Of a stretch of DNA of 31,659 nt, positions 7,066-14,303 are shown piece after piece. The position numbers and the translations under genes are program-made. Source of the stretch: Candidatus Heimdallarchaeota archaeon (GTDB lineage: Archaea > Asgardarchaeota > Heimdallarchaeia > Heimdallarchaeales > Kariarchaeaceae). Location of the stretch: NCBI GenBank assembly GCA_015523565.1, contig WAKA01000050.1, positions 1 through 31,659 on the forward strand, given 5' to 3'. The notes under the pieces are model-generated. The model made no database searches. It was not told where the DNA came from and worked only from the letters and a program-made list of their open reading frames with translations. Numbering within the stretch: position 1 is the first letter of the stretch; each line of letters opens with the position of its first letter.

Positions 7066-7074
7066 AAAAAAAAA
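7066..7074 (-). terminator. Oligo-T terminator of tRNA-Trp
   Basis: T9 run on the minus strand two nt after the tRNA discriminator base. Confidence 0.65.
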
Positions 7075-7076
7075 CA

Positions 7077-7212
7077 TGGGGACACCGGGAATTCCACCGA
7101 TCCAAACGCATCTGGAACGATTTTGAACCCGGACCAGCTGGTTTGTTCTTATGAGCCCAGAAAAGGCTCTCAATCTGGAGCCAGCTACGCTGCCAGGTTA
7201 CGCCATGTCCCC
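7077..7212 (-). tRNA. trnW: tRNA-Trp(CCA) with two introns: 32 nt at 37/38 (7143-7174) and 31 nt at 59/60 (7091-7121); CCA end not encoded
   Basis: Acceptor stem GGGGACA/TGTCCCC, anticodon stem GCTGG/CCAGC with CCA at 7178-7176, T stem CCGGG/CCCGG. Removing both inserts gives loops CTCCAGA and TTCAAAT and a 73-nt tRNA. Confidence 0.93.
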
Positions 7213-7300: not shown

Positions 7301-10300
7301 TCATATTTTTTCGAAGAGTATTCTGAGACTTCTCATTCCCAATTTGGATTTTGACATTAATTTTTTTATGTGGTTGATTTCTTGTGGTGTTTCTTTTTTG
7401 GGGAGGGTCTTGATTATATCCTCGATGATTTCTCTTTTGGTTAGGACAGGTTCTTTTGAGTAATTGGGATCTATATCGATATTGAGTTCTTCAATGATTT
7501 CTCGATATATTTTCATATTATTTTGGAAAATCTTTGGGTCAAGGAATATTGGAGTCCTAAAAGCGCCGTATCTGAAAACCCTTGATTCGGTCACATTCTT
7601 TATTATAATCTGTCCCTTGTTTCTGTCGAAGACGAGAGTGGTTCCAGGGGCGAGGGTTCTTTTAGCAAGTTCAAGCAATTGTTTTTTTGAGAACACTTCT
7701 GCGAGACGATATGTTTGTTTATTTCCTATTCGAGTATTTTTCCAAAAGTTGTAGTTTTGGATGAGGAGTGCCTTATCGAGGGTGAGTCTGTTGAGAATTC
7801 TGTAGAGAAGGGCTTCAAGGTAGAGATGAATTTTTGAGTAGTAATTGCTGGGATTCGGGAACAAGACATCGCCTTGGTGATATGTATCTGAGAAAGTTGG
7901 GTCTATGTCGGAGGGGTGAGTTGGGAAATGTCCAGGGAGTATCCGTAATTTTTGGATTGAAAATGGTCTATCATAGGCATCATGGGATTTTCCAGGGGGA
8001 TACCAAACATATACTGGTTTTAGGTGAGTGAATTGTTGTTTGAAGTCCATTTCGACTAAATTGTTGGCATTTCCAGAAGCAAGTTCTTTTAGTTCCATAA
8101 TCAGAGCAATTTCGATGCAGGTATTCCCATATTTTGAATTCAGTCTATTGATTGTATCTTGGTCAAGGAAATTCTTGATTTCGTGAAAGTAGCTTCCAAG
8201 GAACCTATCGATCATTTCGTCATTCTTGAATTTTTTCAGGAATTTCGATGCCAATTTTTTGTCGAGAGGTTTGTTTTTCAATAGGACATTGTCATCAAAG
8301 ATTCCTGTTGGAGGTCTAAATGGGAGGAATGTCAAGGATTTTCCATCTTTTATTCCCTGTACCAATTCAAGGAGAGGGATTGGAACTTCCTGACCAGCAA
8401 AAATCTCAGTGGTCAATCCACCGATTGGGCTTGGGAATCCAGCGGTTGATGATGATCTTATTGCGGGGGGCAAGTTTCCGAACCATTTGATGACAGTATT
8501 GGTATCGATTGTTTTAATTGAACCATTAAGGATGAATTTTCCATTTTTGAAGAATTGTGGGTGTTCTTTTTTGGGAATGATCAATCTGAAGAATTTGGAA
8601 TATGAGGTGATTTCCCTCACAGGCACAAAATTGTTGGTGTATTGAATCATACCGGTCACCCGTGTCCATGTCTGATAATTTTTAGTTGGAAAGGTTTCAA
8701 TCAAATTCCCGTTTTCATCAGGGATGATTCGGACAATTGTATTGCTGTTTTTTGGCACAAGCACTTCGAGGATTTTGGAGTATGCATCCTTTGGATCAGC
8801 CTGATTTGTAAACAGTAGTTTTAAATCAGAGACATCAAACAGCCTTTGATGGGTGAATGTTATTGGGTAATCTCGTTTAAGACCGTCAAGAATATTGTTG
8901 ACTTTGTTGATATCGACACCAGAAATCGAGAGTATATTGATTTCAGGCATCCAATGTCCGAAAATGAAGTTGCTTGCATGCCCTTGGTTTTTTGAGAGGA
9001 AAACACGGATGAATATTTCCCTTTGAAGTTCCCTGAATGTCACTAGGTCATCATTATCCAATGGAGTTCTGGAAAATATTGACTGTTGGGATTCATTGAG
9101 TTTGATTGAGAAAAGGTCAGGATTTTCGAATAATCGCACCGTTCCTGTTTCATCCAGATATTTTGTTATCCCAAATCGAACAATGGCACAATTTCCGATG
9201 GTTACGTTTTGGGGGCAGAAAAGAGTTTCCCGATCAATAATAGCCCGATATGTGTTTCCTTCTGCGTCTTTTAAAGGAATGAGTATTATGGAAGAGAAAT
9301 CCGTGACCTTGTCATTGACCTCAACCACAACCAAGTCGTCATGATTTTTTATTTTCAACAATTGGCTGGAGAGTGCATCTTGAACTGCTAAAGTCAGGGG
9401 GAAATCAATTCCCAGATTTTTGGGTTCGGGCCATCTTCCACTTCTCATGAATTCAATCATCTGATGTTGTGCAATCGAGTTTTCCATTTTTGCCACATAA
9501 CCGACGATAATCTTGTTTATTATTCGCATTTGAACCGCATTCAAGTCGGAAATCTTGTCCACCTTGAAATTGTTTTTTGCAATGGCTAATTTCAGGTCGT
9601 CTGTAGCAAAATCCAAAGCATTTAGGGAGCACAGTTCATTTGATGGCAAGGATGTGAACAAATTGATATCTCCAGCCATTGTTTTCAGCTTATTCCAGTC
9701 CCTTCCCAATCTGTCGATCCTTGCAAGACCGAAACCGTCAATGAAGGTTCTGTTATCAATAGCAGATTGGATAATTGGTGGATATCCACCCAGTTCACCA
9801 ATCAAAAGACCAGCATTTCCATTGGCATCCAAACTTTTCACAGGACTACTGAGGGAGGCAACTCCTGTAAGTGACAACTTGAATTCATCAATTGTATTGA
9901 GGTAGGAGTTTTCCATAATCGTTGCAACAAGAAAATTGGTGATTTTTGTCAGTCTATTAGTTTCCTCCAATGGTTCAGGAGGAACAATCAAAGTTAACCT
10001 ATCAGTTCCAATTCCAACTGTATTAACATCTATGGAGTGTTGTTTCACCAAATCAAGGGCTTTCAAAAAGGCTTGATCAAGGAGATCAACAGATTCATCG
10101 GAAATGGAAATGCCAACTTCCTTCATTTTTGAGATTATTGCCTTCTTTTGTTTTGAGGAGAGTTTTAATATAATATCCGTGATTGGGTTCCCATCAGTTG
10201 TAAAATTGGCTAAAAACATGGATCCAGGGAGTCTTGATTTTCCAAGGGCAATTTCGATTAGGTGGATTGCAGGGAATTCCCTTTCAATTATATTAAGATA

Positions 10301-10849
10301 CAGCTTTTGGGCAATTTCACCCTGAAAATGAAAGATTTCAGACCCTTTAATGAAATTTGCCTTGGGGTTCGAAATGATTTCAGCAATTGAATCATATTTT
10401 GCCAATTCATCCACATTCTTGTTATTGTTGATTAACCGGAAATATTCTTCAAGAATTTTGGAATCCGTTGTTCCAAAGTATGATTGGATTTTTGTGTCAT
10501 TGACAAATTGTGTTTTAGTCTTTGTGCTTTGATAATAGTAAAGGAAATTGACTTTTCGGGAAATTATTTCTTTTGGGGAAATGCCATCAATTTCATTGAG
10601 GAAATTTTTATGGTAGATTGTTTCGAGACCATTTCTTAGTGTATCGTCTAGAGGGATGATTCCTGACATCGTATAGGGAACTTCCCCCATACCCAAGAAA
10701 TTGAACATTGGACATGACGTCAAAATTGAATCTTCAAGGTTAATTGGAGGGTAAAATGCGGTCTCAAGACTGAAACAAAAGAGACCATCATCATATGAAC
10801 CCAAATGGGTTATGAAAAGAGGAAAAATATGTTCCAACTTGACATCCAC
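7301..10849 (-). CDS. Large hypothetical protein (1182 aa), no recognised domain; 5' end uncertain or possibly degraded
   Basis: 3.5-kb uninterrupted ORF with globular composition. No signal peptide or TM segment is evident. The GTG start is preceded in frame by 38 codons containing two stops. Confidence 0.8.
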   Translation of the reverse strand: MDVKLEHIFPLFITHLGSYDDGLFCFSLETAFYPPINLEDSILTSCPMFNFLGMGEVPYTMSGIIPLDDTLRNGLETIYHKNFLNEIDGISPKEIISRKVNFLYYYQSTKTKTQFVNDTKIQSYFGTTDSKILEEYFRLINNNKNVDELAKYDSIAEIISNPKANFIKGSEIFHFQGEIAQKLYLNIIEREFPAIHLIEIALGKSRLPGSMFLANFTTDGNPITDIILKLSSKQKKAIISKMKEVGISISDESVDLLDQAFLKALDLVKQHSIDVNTVGIGTDRLTLIVPPEPLEETNRLTKITNFLVATIMENSYLNTIDEFKLSLTGVASLSSPVKSLDANGNAGLLIGELGGYPPIIQSAIDNRTFIDGFGLARIDRLGRDWNKLKTMAGDINLFTSLPSNELCSLNALDFATDDLKLAIAKNNFKVDKISDLNAVQMRIINKIIVGYVAKMENSIAQHQMIEFMRSGRWPEPKNLGIDFPLTLAVQDALSSQLLKIKNHDDLVVVEVNDKVTDFSSIILIPLKDAEGNTYRAIIDRETLFCPQNVTIGNCAIVRFGITKYLDETGTVRLFENPDLFSIKLNESQQSIFSRTPLDNDDLVTFRELQREIFIRVFLSKNQGHASNFIFGHWMPEINILSISGVDINKVNNILDGLKRDYPITFTHQRLFDVSDLKLLFTNQADPKDAYSKILEVLVPKNSNTIVRIIPDENGNLIETFPTKNYQTWTRVTGMIQYTNNFVPVREITSYSKFFRLIIPKKEHPQFFKNGKFILNGSIKTIDTNTVIKWFGNLPPAIRSSSTAGFPSPIGGLTTEIFAGQEVPIPLLELVQGIKDGKSLTFLPFRPPTGIFDDNVLLKNKPLDKKLASKFLKKFKNDEMIDRFLGSYFHEIKNFLDQDTINRLNSKYGNTCIEIALIMELKELASGNANNLVEMDFKQQFTHLKPVYVWYPPGKSHDAYDRPFSIQKLRILPGHFPTHPSDIDPTFSDTYHQGDVLFPNPSNYYSKIHLYLEALLYRILNRLTLDKALLIQNYNFWKNTRIGNKQTYRLAEVFSKKQLLELAKRTLAPGTTLVFDRNKGQIIIKNVTESRVFRYGAFRTPIFLDPKIFQNNMKIYREIIEELNIDIDPNYSKEPVLTKREIIEDIIKTLPKKETPQEINHIKKLMSKSKLGMRSLRILFEKI

Positions 10850-11075: not shown

Positions 11076-11097
11076 ACGGAATCCAAAAATGAAAAAT

Positions 11098-11847
11098 ATG
11101 CACAACAAAAAAATTAAGGGATCATTTGTTTCGATTTTGGTTATTGCAATGTTGATTGTGCAAATCAATGATATCTACAATTTGATAGAGTATTACAAGA
11201 CCCCAACCAGTCCAAATTACTCTACAGACTTGTGGAGCACGGAATACGATGTGATTGACAATCCAGATGATTATGTGCTATCCTTATCAATAAATTACCC
11301 TATGAGCTCAAGTAATTACAAACGGACGGTTCGAGGGAATAACATCACGGTAATGAACATCAATGGAACTGTGCAAAATGCACCCTTTAGCGTGTTGATT
11401 GGTACTTCCGTGGTGGAAATGGTTGCGGCAGAGCTTTTTTTTGTTATTGCTATTTACAGTGGAGGGAAATTGTACAAGGATGATTATTATTTTTTCAGAA
11501 ATGACAAGGAAAACAATATCACAAGTTTTGAAAAAAGTTTCCAAGTTGAGACAAAAGCCACGGGGAAAAGTGTTTTTGAGGAGAAGGAGTTCCAAATCTT
11601 TTACAAGTACAAAGAAACATTCATTATGAAAAACGGGAGTAAGCAATGGATAATAGTAGGATACTACCAGATAGAATTAGGGAATGGAACAAACTATGCC
11701 GTTTTAAACCAAATAGGTGTAGGGTCACCAGATCTTATAATCAGGGTTCTCAATCCAATCAGGCTGGTAATTGATGGGGGGTTGTTTATTGCGACTGTTG
11801 CAATCATGATTCAAATGTATAGAAGACGACAAGAATGGTTCGGTTAA
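11098..11847 (+). CDS. Doubly membrane-anchored extracellular protein, paralog A (249 aa from ATG 11098)
   Basis: N-terminal hydrophobic helix, about 190-aa beta-rich loop with several N-x-S/T sequons, C-terminal TM plus basic tail. Aligns without gaps to 17533..18282. Confidence 0.85.
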   Translation: MHNKKIKGSFVSILVIAMLIVQINDIYNLIEYYKTPTSPNYSTDLWSTEYDVIDNPDDYVLSLSINYPMSSSNYKRTVRGNNITVMNINGTVQNAPFSVLIGTSVVEMVAAELFFVIAIYSGGKLYKDDYYFFRNDKENNITSFEKSFQVETKATGKSVFEEKEFQIFYKYKETFIMKNGSKQWIIVGYYQIELGNGTNYAVLNQIGVGSPDLIIRVLNPIRLVIDGGLFIATVAIMIQMYRRRQEWFG

Positions 11848-14303
11848 CCGTGGTTACCATGAGCAAGTACAGTCATATTTCTGTAGACAAGTCATTCAGC
11901 AAATCATTTTTGACAATTTTCATATATTTTCTTGTTTTCATTTCCATTTTGAATCAGGGCAGTATAAACCTTGAGGGGGATTGGGAGAAAACCATTGCAA
12001 TAGTGGGGTCAGAGACGAACAAATGGGAAGGTGAGACGAATATATTTTCACAGGTTGTTTTCAAGCCATATTTTGTGGATGGAATAACTGTTTATTCAAC
12101 TAAAATACGGGATGGGCAATTGGGGATGACAATGAATTCCAAGGTTATGGAGAATTATTCGGAAATATGGTTGATTGTTTCATGGAAAGGTAGTTTTCAA
12201 TTATCCAATACAACAATTAGTGAGGGAATTGCTTGGGATAAAACCATTGGAGAGCCAATTGTGTTGCAATATGGTAATCAAAGCATTTTTAGGTTTATGC
12301 CTGACAAACAGCTAAAGATATCCCAAGTAGAAGTCATCAATTGGCTCAATGTAAAATCGAGAGGATTCATTCAGATAGGCAATAAGAGTCTTGTTCTTTT
12401 CAACATGGTTAATTTTCCATTTTCATTGTTAAATACGACAACAATAAAGAGGTATGATTTTTGGGATTATCCAGATGGTGCAGAAAAGGATGATACAAAT
12501 GAGATTATAAAGACTTCGAATCAATTGGAGACAAAGATTTTGAATTTACTTACGTTTGCAAATTACACCATTGTTTTACAATGGTCATTCTTGGTTGACA
12601 AGATTTTTGAAAAAAGGCAGGAACAGGTGTCAATCAATATATTTTACTTTGTTTTTCTTCTTCTTACAATTCAATTTGCAATTTATTTTAAGCATAAAGG
12701 AGAATTGAAATCATCGTATATCCATAATCTCTTAATAAGGGGTCTCACACCAAGAAACATATTTTTTGATCAACTAAGAGAGAGCATTGTGATTGAATTA
12801 CTGCATATTGCCATTGCCTATATTCTAACGTTATTTTATATGAAAAAGGGGATAATTGAAATATCTGCATTGCCGTTTATTGTGAGTATTTTTATGCTGA
12901 ATATCATTTCAACGATGATTGTACTGTTGCGATCAATTGGGGAATATGATTTATACACAGGGGAATTTATAGAGGAAGAGAAAATTGGAGCCAATCTTAA
13001 GAGATTCATCAATTGGGTTTTCCTTATTTTCATTATCTTATTGGTTGGCACAAACATTTCTCGTTTTTTAAGGCAAGAGATTGCCATACAGGTGATCAAG
13101 GTTTTCTTACTGACAGGTACAGGATATTTAATTCATAGACATTTTTCAGATATTTTCCTTGAGACAGGCAAGCATATCCCAAAATTTTCAAAAAGCATGG
13201 CAATGCTGTCTCGATCGCGTGATTTTTCAAAAAAAATCAGGGGATTGTCTTCCCTTGTCACACTTATTTTTTTGGCAACCATTCTTTTTTCACAACTTTC
13301 ATTTGCGGGAAAATACACAAGTGACATTGAACATACACTTTTGATTGGAGATTACTATTTGGAAAATATAGATGAGGGAACGTTAAGTAAACTAAAAATG
13401 TCACCCTTTATTGAGGGCTACGTCGGGATTAACAGAACAGATGCATATTCGTTAATATTGAATGGGGAAACATATGAGCTAGCCATTTCAGTTTTCTTGG
13501 TTAATTTTACCCAGATGGATGAAGTAATTGGAGAAAATGCATATTGGCAAAGGATCAAGACATTTGTTTCAGGGGAGGGGGCGATTGTTTCGAGAAGCAT
13601 ATCAGCTAAATTGGGGATAAAATCCGATGATACAATTGAGTTTATAGGTTCTGAAAATAAATCGAGGGTATTGGGGATTTTGCCGCTGTTTCCAGGCATA
13701 TTTGACAAGAATTGGATTGTCATCAATTCAGCAATCGTTATAGATGGAGAAAAGCAGGCAAACATAGCTATAAGAACAAAATCAAGGGAAAGGTTCGTGA
13801 GTTGGTATGAGAGTAATTTAGGATATTTTAATCCAAAGGAGGTCACTATTCGAGAAGTGTTTCAAATCAATTTCTTTATTGGAATGAAGTATTTGTTTTA
13901 CTCGATGATAAGGGTGAGGACTCAAGAGCTTGGAATGCTTTTTGGGATTTTTGCATTGTTTTTTTTATTGGAGGTTGCAAAGATCGTTTCTGCAATTATT
14001 GGTGATCATTTGAAATGGAGGCCAATAATGATTTCAAGGGGCAGTCCTGAAAAAAATATGAGAAAACTGCTATATGATCCACTTGACATATTTTTCTCAA
14101 CTTTTGCCTTATGGATCGCAGTTGCCTTGGTTCTGTCAACAGTCATATTCCAGACTGTATTTGGAAGCATGGTTGAAGAAGTACCTGTTGAAACACCATA
14201 TCTTTTATTGGTTTTTTCAATTTCAATAGGTATATTTGTCTATTTGGTTTTTGCATTGAAGACGAAAATTGGAAAGATAAGAATGAGGTGGTTAATTGCA
14301 TAA
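11835..14303 (+). CDS. FtsX/MacB-like ABC permease 1 (two FtsX-like halves); start 11835 or 11859
   Basis: TM-ectodomain-TM cluster pattern occurs twice. Coupling-helix-like LLIRGLTPRNI and MISRGSPEKNM. In an operon with a LolD-type ATPase. Confidence 0.75.
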   Translation: MVRLTVVTMSKYSHISVDKSFSKSFLTIFIYFLVFISILNQGSINLEGDWEKTIAIVGSETNKWEGETNIFSQVVFKPYFVDGITVYSTKIRDGQLGMTMNSKVMENYSEIWLIVSWKGSFQLSNTTISEGIAWDKTIGEPIVLQYGNQSIFRFMPDKQLKISQVEVINWLNVKSRGFIQIGNKSLVLFNMVNFPFSLLNTTTIKRYDFWDYPDGAEKDDTNEIIKTSNQLETKILNLLTFANYTIVLQWSFLVDKIFEKRQEQVSINIFYFVFLLLTIQFAIYFKHKGELKSSYIHNLLIRGLTPRNIFFDQLRESIVIELLHIAIAYILTLFYMKKGIIEISALPFIVSIFMLNIISTMIVLLRSIGEYDLYTGEFIEEEKIGANLKRFINWVFLIFIILLVGTNISRFLRQEIAIQVIKVFLLTGTGYLIHRHFSDIFLETGKHIPKFSKSMAMLSRSRDFSKKIRGLSSLVTLIFLATILFSQLSFAGKYTSDIEHTLLIGDYYLENIDEGTLSKLKMSPFIEGYVGINRTDAYSLILNGETYELAISVFLVNFTQMDEVIGENAYWQRIKTFVSGEGAIVSRSISAKLGIKSDDTIEFIGSENKSRVLGILPLFPGIFDKNWIVINSAIVIDGEKQANIAIRTKSRERFVSWYESNLGYFNPKEVTIREVFQINFFIGMKYLFYSMIRVRTQELGMLFGIFALFFLLEVAKIVSAIIGDHLKWRPIMISRGSPEKNMRKLLYDPLDIFFSTFALWIAVALVLSTVIFQTVFGSMVEEVPVETPYLLLVFSISIGIFVYLVFALKTKIGKIRMRWLIA

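Follow-up and report, generated by a model that had tools for sequence, protein, structure and literature searches.

The locus described here raises the question of whether 31 nt that interrupt the T-loop of a tRNA-Trp gene, which also carries an intron at the canonical place, are removed by the cell as a second intron, are retained in the mature tRNA or have inactivated the gene, and, if they are an intron, how they came to be there. The window, by which we mean the whole 31,659-nt stretch of DNA that was analysed, is contig C50 of a Candidatus Heimdallarchaeota assembly (G000) of 3.57 Mb in 233 contigs that is about 90% complete. Judged from its sequence, the T-loop insert is very probably a spliced bulge-helix-bulge (BHB) intron of a working, apparently single-copy, three-exon tRNA-Trp(CCA) gene.

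A tRNA-Trp gene in three exons

The whole pre-tRNA-Trp(CCA) gene occupies 7077-7212 on the minus strand (136 nt, read from 7212 down to 7077) and does not encode the CCA end. Exon 1 (7175-7212, minus strand) supplies the 5' strand of the acceptor stem, the D-arm, the 5' strand of the anticodon stem and the loop through G37 of the cloverleaf, with the anticodon CCA at 7178-7176, and is followed by a canonical intron of 32 nt between positions 37 and 38 (7143-7174, minus strand), a relaxed BHB that was seen by ARAGORN in its intron mode and in the minimum free energy (MFE) fold. Exon 2 (7122-7142, minus strand) holds position 38, the 3' strand of the anticodon stem, a 4-nt variable region, the 5' strand of the T-stem and T-loop positions 54-59. 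The second, non-canonical intron of 31 nt (7091-7121, minus strand) then separates positions 59 and 60, and exon 3 (7077-7090, minus strand) completes the gene with T60, the T-stem 3' strand CCCGG, the acceptor 3' strand TGTCCCC and the discriminator A73. The acceptor stem is GGGGACA/TGTCCCC with its discriminator A at 7077, the D-arm is GCGU-AACCUGGCA-GCGU with two G-U pairs in the stem, the exons together give an anticodon stem GCUGG/CCAGC with the loop CU-CCA-G, and the T-stem pairs CCGGG (7132-7128) with CCCGG (7089-7085). When both inserts were excised in silico ARAGORN returned a 73-nt tRNA-Trp(CCA) cloverleaf with every stem intact, and when the T-loop insert alone was excised it returned, in intron mode, a tRNA-Trp with a 32-nt intron. 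We name the gene for its cloverleaf, its anticodon CCA and its discriminator A73 as read by ARAGORN.

Three nucleotides past the discriminator begins a run of nine T (7066-7074, minus strand), an arrangement repeated in relatives, which looks like an archaeal oligo-T terminator at which transcription would end. The CCA 3' end that is absent from this gene is encoded in the Phe, Pro and Tyr genes of genus g11 of the sister family (L244-L248). The large ORFs next to the gene, at 7301-10849 (minus strand, 1182 aa), 11089-11847 (plus strand, 252 aa) and 11835-14303 (plus strand, 822 aa), had no Pfam match at E <= 0.001.

The boundaries of the canonical intron are placed at 7143-7174, a shift to 7142-7173 giving an identical product. 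It keeps the BHB spacing of 4+3 on each side, and in its MFE fold the intron hairpin, the inner part of which is GAGCC/GGCUC, is flanked by 7-nt/7-nt internal loops. Two of the four pairs form in its central helix CUCC/GAAC, which makes the motif a relaxed one, and this weak helix is a point against reading the gene as spliced. The pairing bases of the helix (G opposite C35 and A opposite U33) are kept in 8/9 copies from the same family, the copy in relative G009 being the one that differs. This intron differs far more between G000 and its relative G001 than the T-loop intron does, the latter being identical at 29 of its 31 positions.

The T-loop insert forms a strict bulge-helix-bulge

Read 5' to 3', with a caret at each predicted cut, the interrupted T-arm runs CCGGG, TTCA, AA^A, a 24-nt hairpin, TGGA, AT^T and CCCGG. 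Its central helix has 4 bp, one of them U-G, and joins T54 T55 C56 A57 of the T-loop (TTCA, 7127-7124) to the intron sequence TGGA (7096-7093), all on the minus strand. On either side of it lie bulges of 3 nt each, on opposite strands, at 7123-7121 (AA^A) and 7092-7090 (AT^T). The exon side is closed by helix h, the 5-bp T-stem, and the intron side by helix h', a hairpin (7097-7120, minus strand) with a UGCG loop that contains the core CCAGATGCGTTTGG and is paired at 9/10 positions, the exception being a T/T mismatch. With these flanking helices the locus passes a strict genome-wide scan for the hBHBh' motif, and it scores 54.1 bits with model R1. Excision of 7091-7121, in which each cut falls after the second base of its bulge, restores a 7-nt T-loop, TTCAAAT, and the predicted spliced junction is ...GGGTTCAAA joined to TCCCGG....

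The 48 nt of T-arm plus intron fold at -19.2 kcal/mol (z = -2.98). By our own estimate a random insert would offer a 4-bp central helix together with 3 bp of intron helix about once in 1000 trials (0.375^7), and because the actual intron helix is far longer, and in view of the z-score, we regard the structure as beyond chance. Against the spliced-gene reading stand the U-G pair in the central helix and the absence of that helix from the MFE fold, which leaves its 4 bp open, as is usual for BHB motifs. The preliminary description had taken the locus for a tRNA-Trp that has, besides its canonical intron, a non-canonical BHB intron at 59/60, and this core reading is correct, as are all the coordinates and motifs that it gave for a full bulge-helix-bulge at 7091-7121 (the sequence being that of the minus strand); its claim that splicing restores TTCAAAT was confirmed by the in-silico excision.

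Standard searches miss the gene and find no second copy

In the raw window no tRNA was called by ARAGORN or by Rfam, whether in gathering or in E-value mode. Over the whole G000 genome the Rfam tRNA model missed the locus and found no other tRNA-Trp, ARAGORN in intron mode called 38 tRNAs, none of them Trp, and blastn-short with the mature sequence found no second tRNA-Trp copy. The strict hBHBh' scan of the same genome, in which each of 87,120 candidates was spliced and then run through ARAGORN, recovered the tRNA-Trp, no second Trp, and three further hidden tRNAs with 59/60 BHB introns: His(GUG), with an intron of 31 nt (contig C140, 19014-19044, plus strand; L156), Arg(UCG), with one of 30 nt (contig C151, 8428-8457, plus strand; L157), and Gln(CUG), with one of 29 nt (contig C232, 3374-3402, plus strand; L158), the last labelled Glu(CTC) by ARAGORN. 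A short 37/38 intron is also present in His(GUG) and Gln(CUG). The expectation that standard scans may miss the gene therefore proved true for ARAGORN and the Rfam tRNA model on raw sequence; and another intact tRNA-Trp, which together with transcripts retaining the insert had been named as the sign of a pseudogene, was found by none of four methods (ARAGORN, Rfam, BHB scan and blastn-short) in a genome about 90% complete, a figure that leaves room for an unassembled second copy.

Phe(GAA), Thr(GGU/CGU), Ala(UGC) and some other tRNAs were likewise found in G000 by neither ARAGORN nor the strict BHB scan, and they may sit behind other non-canonical introns or in unassembled sequence. Gly(GCC) of the same genome is truncated where contig C142 ends, and ARAGORN calls with 'introns' of 506 nt and 1356 nt (C135, C202) look doubtful. 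Searches of metagenome contigs gave 0 matches to the exact spliced junction (a 31-mer), and, for the Trp pattern with its intron, nothing beyond chance matches and contigs identical to the relative G008; against genome contigs, an anchor of 17 bases taken from the gene's 5' half gave, among the matches listed, nearly all chance bacterial ones. Without BHB-aware tools G000 would seem short of tRNA-Trp, tRNA-His, tRNA-Arg(UCG) and tRNA-Gln(CUG), and hidden tRNAs of this kind would bias inferences on completeness and codon usage for Asgard genomes.

One site, filled and empty, within a family

A survey of Asgard tRNA-Trp genes had been proposed in the preliminary description; we ran it in the GTDB family of G000 (f1), the Trp anchor being kept only there, so that class-wide Trp patterns could not score other families. 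A tRNA-Trp was found in 9/12 genomes of the family (G000 counted), with the 37/38 intron in all nine and the second intron in four (G000, G001, G003 and G008), the BHB being intact in each of these. The G001 intron is that of G000 with two substitutions, one of which turns a C-G into a U-G pair and so keeps the pairing, the other turning the T/T mismatch into T-G, while those of G003 (21 nt) and G008 (31 nt) are unrelated in sequence. In the remaining five relatives the Trp T-loop is uninterrupted, and among these is G002, which belongs to the same genus and has nearly identical exons. Because four sites are occupied, five are empty and the sequences are unrelated, the 59/60 site of tRNA-Trp must have been filled, replaced or emptied several times in this one family. 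The locus thus offers a clean presence/absence series, with three unrelated intron sequences at the one position and five genes in which it is empty.

A large class of mini-introns at 59/60

Hairpin mini-introns of about 30 nt at 59/60 form a large class across Asgard archaea, and the Trp T-loop intron belongs to it. A covariance model built from seven T-arm-plus-intron sequences, with introns of 21-31 nt, matched 59/83 genomes of the class at E <= 0.01 and 99/151 sampled genomes of the phylum at E <= 0.001. After excision of the predicted intron 85 of the 101 matches that were fetched became tRNAs for ARAGORN, with about 37 anticodon types among them. Intron length was 29-33 nt in 97/101 matches with a mode of 31, a distribution that is partly biased because the model was trained on introns of 21-31 nt. 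In 97 distinct T-arm-plus-intron sequences, aligned by a fit to the model that found them, standard pairs filled 94.4% of pair cells (67.5% when shuffled), and the covariation score of this alignment, which was both selected by and fitted to the model, was 0.649 as against 0.167 for shuffled sequences and at most 0.13 when the partners were slid. Within the same model-fitted alignment position 57 covaries with its intron partner (A-U in 74 sequences, G-C in 18) and all six pairs of the intron helix have changes on both sides, a pattern with which the Trp copies of G001, G003 and G008 agree. The hairpin loop has a weak motif, approximately UUGNGG (alignment A3, 101 introns: T 57%, T 53%, G 41%, N, G 42%, G 38%).

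A shared core points to intron copying

The Trp intron of G000 and G001 clusters with 59/60 introns that genus g11 of the sister family f2 carries in tRNA-Phe(GAA), tRNA-Pro(UGG) and, probably, tRNA-Tyr(GUA). Clusters were defined at 75-80% identity or higher together with column-preserving shuffles; single-linkage clustering at 70% identity was rejected, having linked 49 AT-rich introns in a single cluster without meaning. G001 Trp and G033 Phe have an identical 16-mer in common, in arms whose T-stems are different (alignment A4). A core, TTTCAGATGCG[T/C]TCTGAA, is nearly invariant across two or three different tRNAs in 19/25 g11 genomes, and the outer stem varies (L244, L228, L245-L248), which suggests that the core either is constrained or has spread very recently. 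Neither a donor copy nor a direction of transfer emerged, the core pattern occurring once in G000 and once in G001. In G002 there are 13 model matches (3-6 in its neighbours), with nearly the same intron in Leu(UAA), Leu(CAG) and Asp(GUC) (L221, L229 and L233; also L193/L198), and this looks like a burst of intron copying inside one genome.

Such a shared core suggests that introns were copied between T-loops. Because the core is common to other tRNAs, we infer that the Trp T-loop intron most likely arrived by the copying of an existing intron and did not arise in place. We would go further only tentatively, since the fuller picture is possible at best: the intron might have come recently from a mobile lineage of hairpin mini-introns, about 31 nt long, that insert specifically at 59/60 and move between tRNA genes and across Heimdall-group families, and its core (TTTCAGATGCG-TCTGAA) might be conserved through recognition by something beyond the splicing endonuclease. 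The Trp series, with its link to the introns of the sister family, bears on how archaeal tRNA introns arrive, a question left unanswered for Asgard archaea by a recent preprint (10.64898/2026.10.13.758758).

It is also conceivable, if rather doubtful, that the core common to the Trp and the Phe, Pro and Tyr introns reflects a consensus design of the class or convergent selection, and not copying. In favour of this are the weak loop consensus of the class, near UUGNGG, and its preferred length, and the similarity of the G000 Trp intron, 0.76, is borderline, being reached by a conservative, column-composition-preserving null in 8/300 shuffles. However, the identity of the G001 Trp intron to G033 Phe (0.80) and to G026 Pro (0.79) was met by 0/300 shuffles under the same null, and the 16-mer common to G001 Trp and G033 Phe includes stem positions that vary freely in other introns. 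Moreover, pairs of introns from different tRNA types with at least 80% identity numbered 17 over the class as against 0 in shuffles, and 5 as against 0 in 200 column shuffles, and the core pattern was found only in the 19/25 g11 genomes (one or two copies each) and in G000 and G001, nowhere else in the class and with no control matches.

An explanation of a different kind holds that the intron is kept as protection, since it breaks the T-arm/3' target site of integrating viruses and plasmids. The preliminary description had raised the idea for elements that target tRNA 3' halves, and it is a speculation of the sort made by Randau and Soll 2008, to go by the citation of that work in PMC4033280. 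The intron indeed interrupts the 3' part of the gene, yet close relatives live without it, a scan of five neighbouring ORFs showed no integrase domain, and the same core at one site in different tRNAs fits a selfish or neutral spread that is limited by where a BHB can form. We hold protection to be improbable, and the pattern of related introns that share a site in different tRNAs resembles the intron's own spread more than the blocking of integration.

Splicing enzymes and a proposed pathway

G000 encodes an EndA alpha paralogue (L130, 1195-1788, plus strand, 197 aa) that is closest to the catalytic subunit of Aeropyrum pernix (3p1z_B, E = 1e-26). Its alignment is free of gaps over the Crenarchaea-specific loop region, and its catalytic His and Lys are identical to those of A. 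pernix in the alignment, the Tyr position having been read by eye. The catalytic His is absent from a second EndA paralogue, the presumed beta subunit (L131, 1369-1998, minus strand, 209 aa), and an RtcB ligase is also present in the genome (564 bits). As to the endonuclease type, which the preliminary description had put down for checking, the two paralogues point to a two-subunit splicing endonuclease belonging to type (alpha-beta)2, which would assemble as a heterotetramer. Asgard EndA has been assigned to the (alpha-beta)2 type with an L1 loop (PMC5829648), and an (alpha-beta)2 EndA bearing this loop cleaves BHB introns in isolated mini-helices as well as at positions other than the standard ones (PMC3241643).

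We infer splicing in the cell from the anatomy of the gene, its in-silico product, conservation with covariation and these enzyme genes, and the pathway set out here draws on that anatomy and on published enzyme work. The 136-nt precursor would fold so that each intron presents a bulge-helix-bulge motif. In the T-arm, the T-stem would act as exon helix, T-loop positions 54-57 would form the 4-bp central helix with intron TGGA, and two 3-nt bulges would flank this helix, the motif being closed by the intron hairpin of ten positions. The (alpha-beta)2 EndA would then cut past the second base of each bulge, and RtcB would ligate A59 to U60, restoring the 7-nt T-loop so that the tRNA elbow can form. 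The 37/38 intron, with its relaxed motif, would be removed by the same route.

Could the insert be other than a spliced intron?

It could be supposed that a 31-bp insertion into the T-loop has inactivated this tRNA-Trp, leaving a pseudogene while another tRNA-Trp is in service, and the invisibility of the gene to standard finders, in an assembly about 90% complete from which a second copy could be missing, would be compatible with this. We nevertheless consider it very unlikely. Four methods found no other Trp gene, all stems are intact and the spliced product is perfect, and the insert has exact BHB geometry. The same site is moreover occupied in three relatives, with changes that preserve pairing, and three other essential tRNAs of the same genome (His, Arg and Gln) have the same layout.

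Even less probable, to our minds, is that the insert is retained and that the mature tRNA-Trp has an enlarged T-arm with an extra hairpin. The case for splicing rests on sequence, which gives this alternative such room as it has; but retention would split conserved T-loop bases and break the D/T elbow, and the ends of the insert fall exactly where BHB cleavage restores TTCAAAT. In addition, position 57 covaries with the intron base that faces it, which is relevant only to the structure of a precursor, and the sequence of the hairpin has been free to change between relatives. We reject both of these alternatives and keep to a spliced intron in a working gene. An assembly artefact is likewise rejected, the same structure being present in independent assemblies.

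Comparison with known systems

Euryarchaeal pre-tRNA-Trp, as in Haloferax and Pyrococcus, carries a 37/38 intron that holds a box C/D guide. The 37/38 site is common to that gene and to ours, whereas the 32-nt intron found here is too short for a guide, and our gene has a second intron besides. T-loop BHB introns as such are long established (PMC3241643; PMC6379350). The pre-tRNA-Cys(GCA) and pre-tRNA-Pro(GGG) of ARMAN-2 (Fujishima et al. 2011, PMC3239211) are interrupted at the same 59/60 site, and the Pro intron is also a strict hBHBh' motif; ARMAN-2 differs in that it belongs to the DPANN archaea and has an epsilon2-type endonuclease, and in that the partner intron of Pro(GGG) lies in the T-loop at 53/54 and not at 37/38. 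As far as the Thermoproteales are represented in the preprint and in PMC5829648, through which we cite Sugahara 2008 and Fujishima 2010, they resemble the present case in their (alpha-beta)2 EndA with the loop, in introns at many positions and in related introns across tRNA genes. They belong to another phylum, and by the same accounts related introns there occupy different positions, whereas here they keep to one position and, nearly, to one length of about 30 nt.

The preliminary description had held that tRNAs with several introns or with introns at non-canonical positions are best known from TACK and some DPANN archaea, a statement that has been overtaken, Asgard archaea now being reported as rich in them, the T-arm included (PMC11291895; bioRxiv 10.64898/2026.10.13.758758). 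According to these two studies Asgard tRNA genes are heavily interrupted and their annotated introns lie mostly at 37/38 and in the T-arm. A BHB intron at 59/60 in an Asgard tRNA is in itself expected biology, its layout being common and already reported in the group, and the present case is real but fairly ordinary. What those reports (Valentin-Alvarado et al. 2024, PMC11291895; Goswami et al. 2026 preprint) describe is like our gene in its multi-intron tRNA genes, BHB sites and two-subunit EndA, and in that some of the genes were missed by annotators. Their focus, however, is on Atabeyarchaeia, Freyarchaeia and Jordiarchaeaceae, and Heimdallarchaeia are reported to have a low intron burden. 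Moreover, intron families that extend across tRNA types are almost absent from the focal lineages of the preprint by Goswami et al. (1.5%), whereas in the Heimdall group such families are evident at 59/60.
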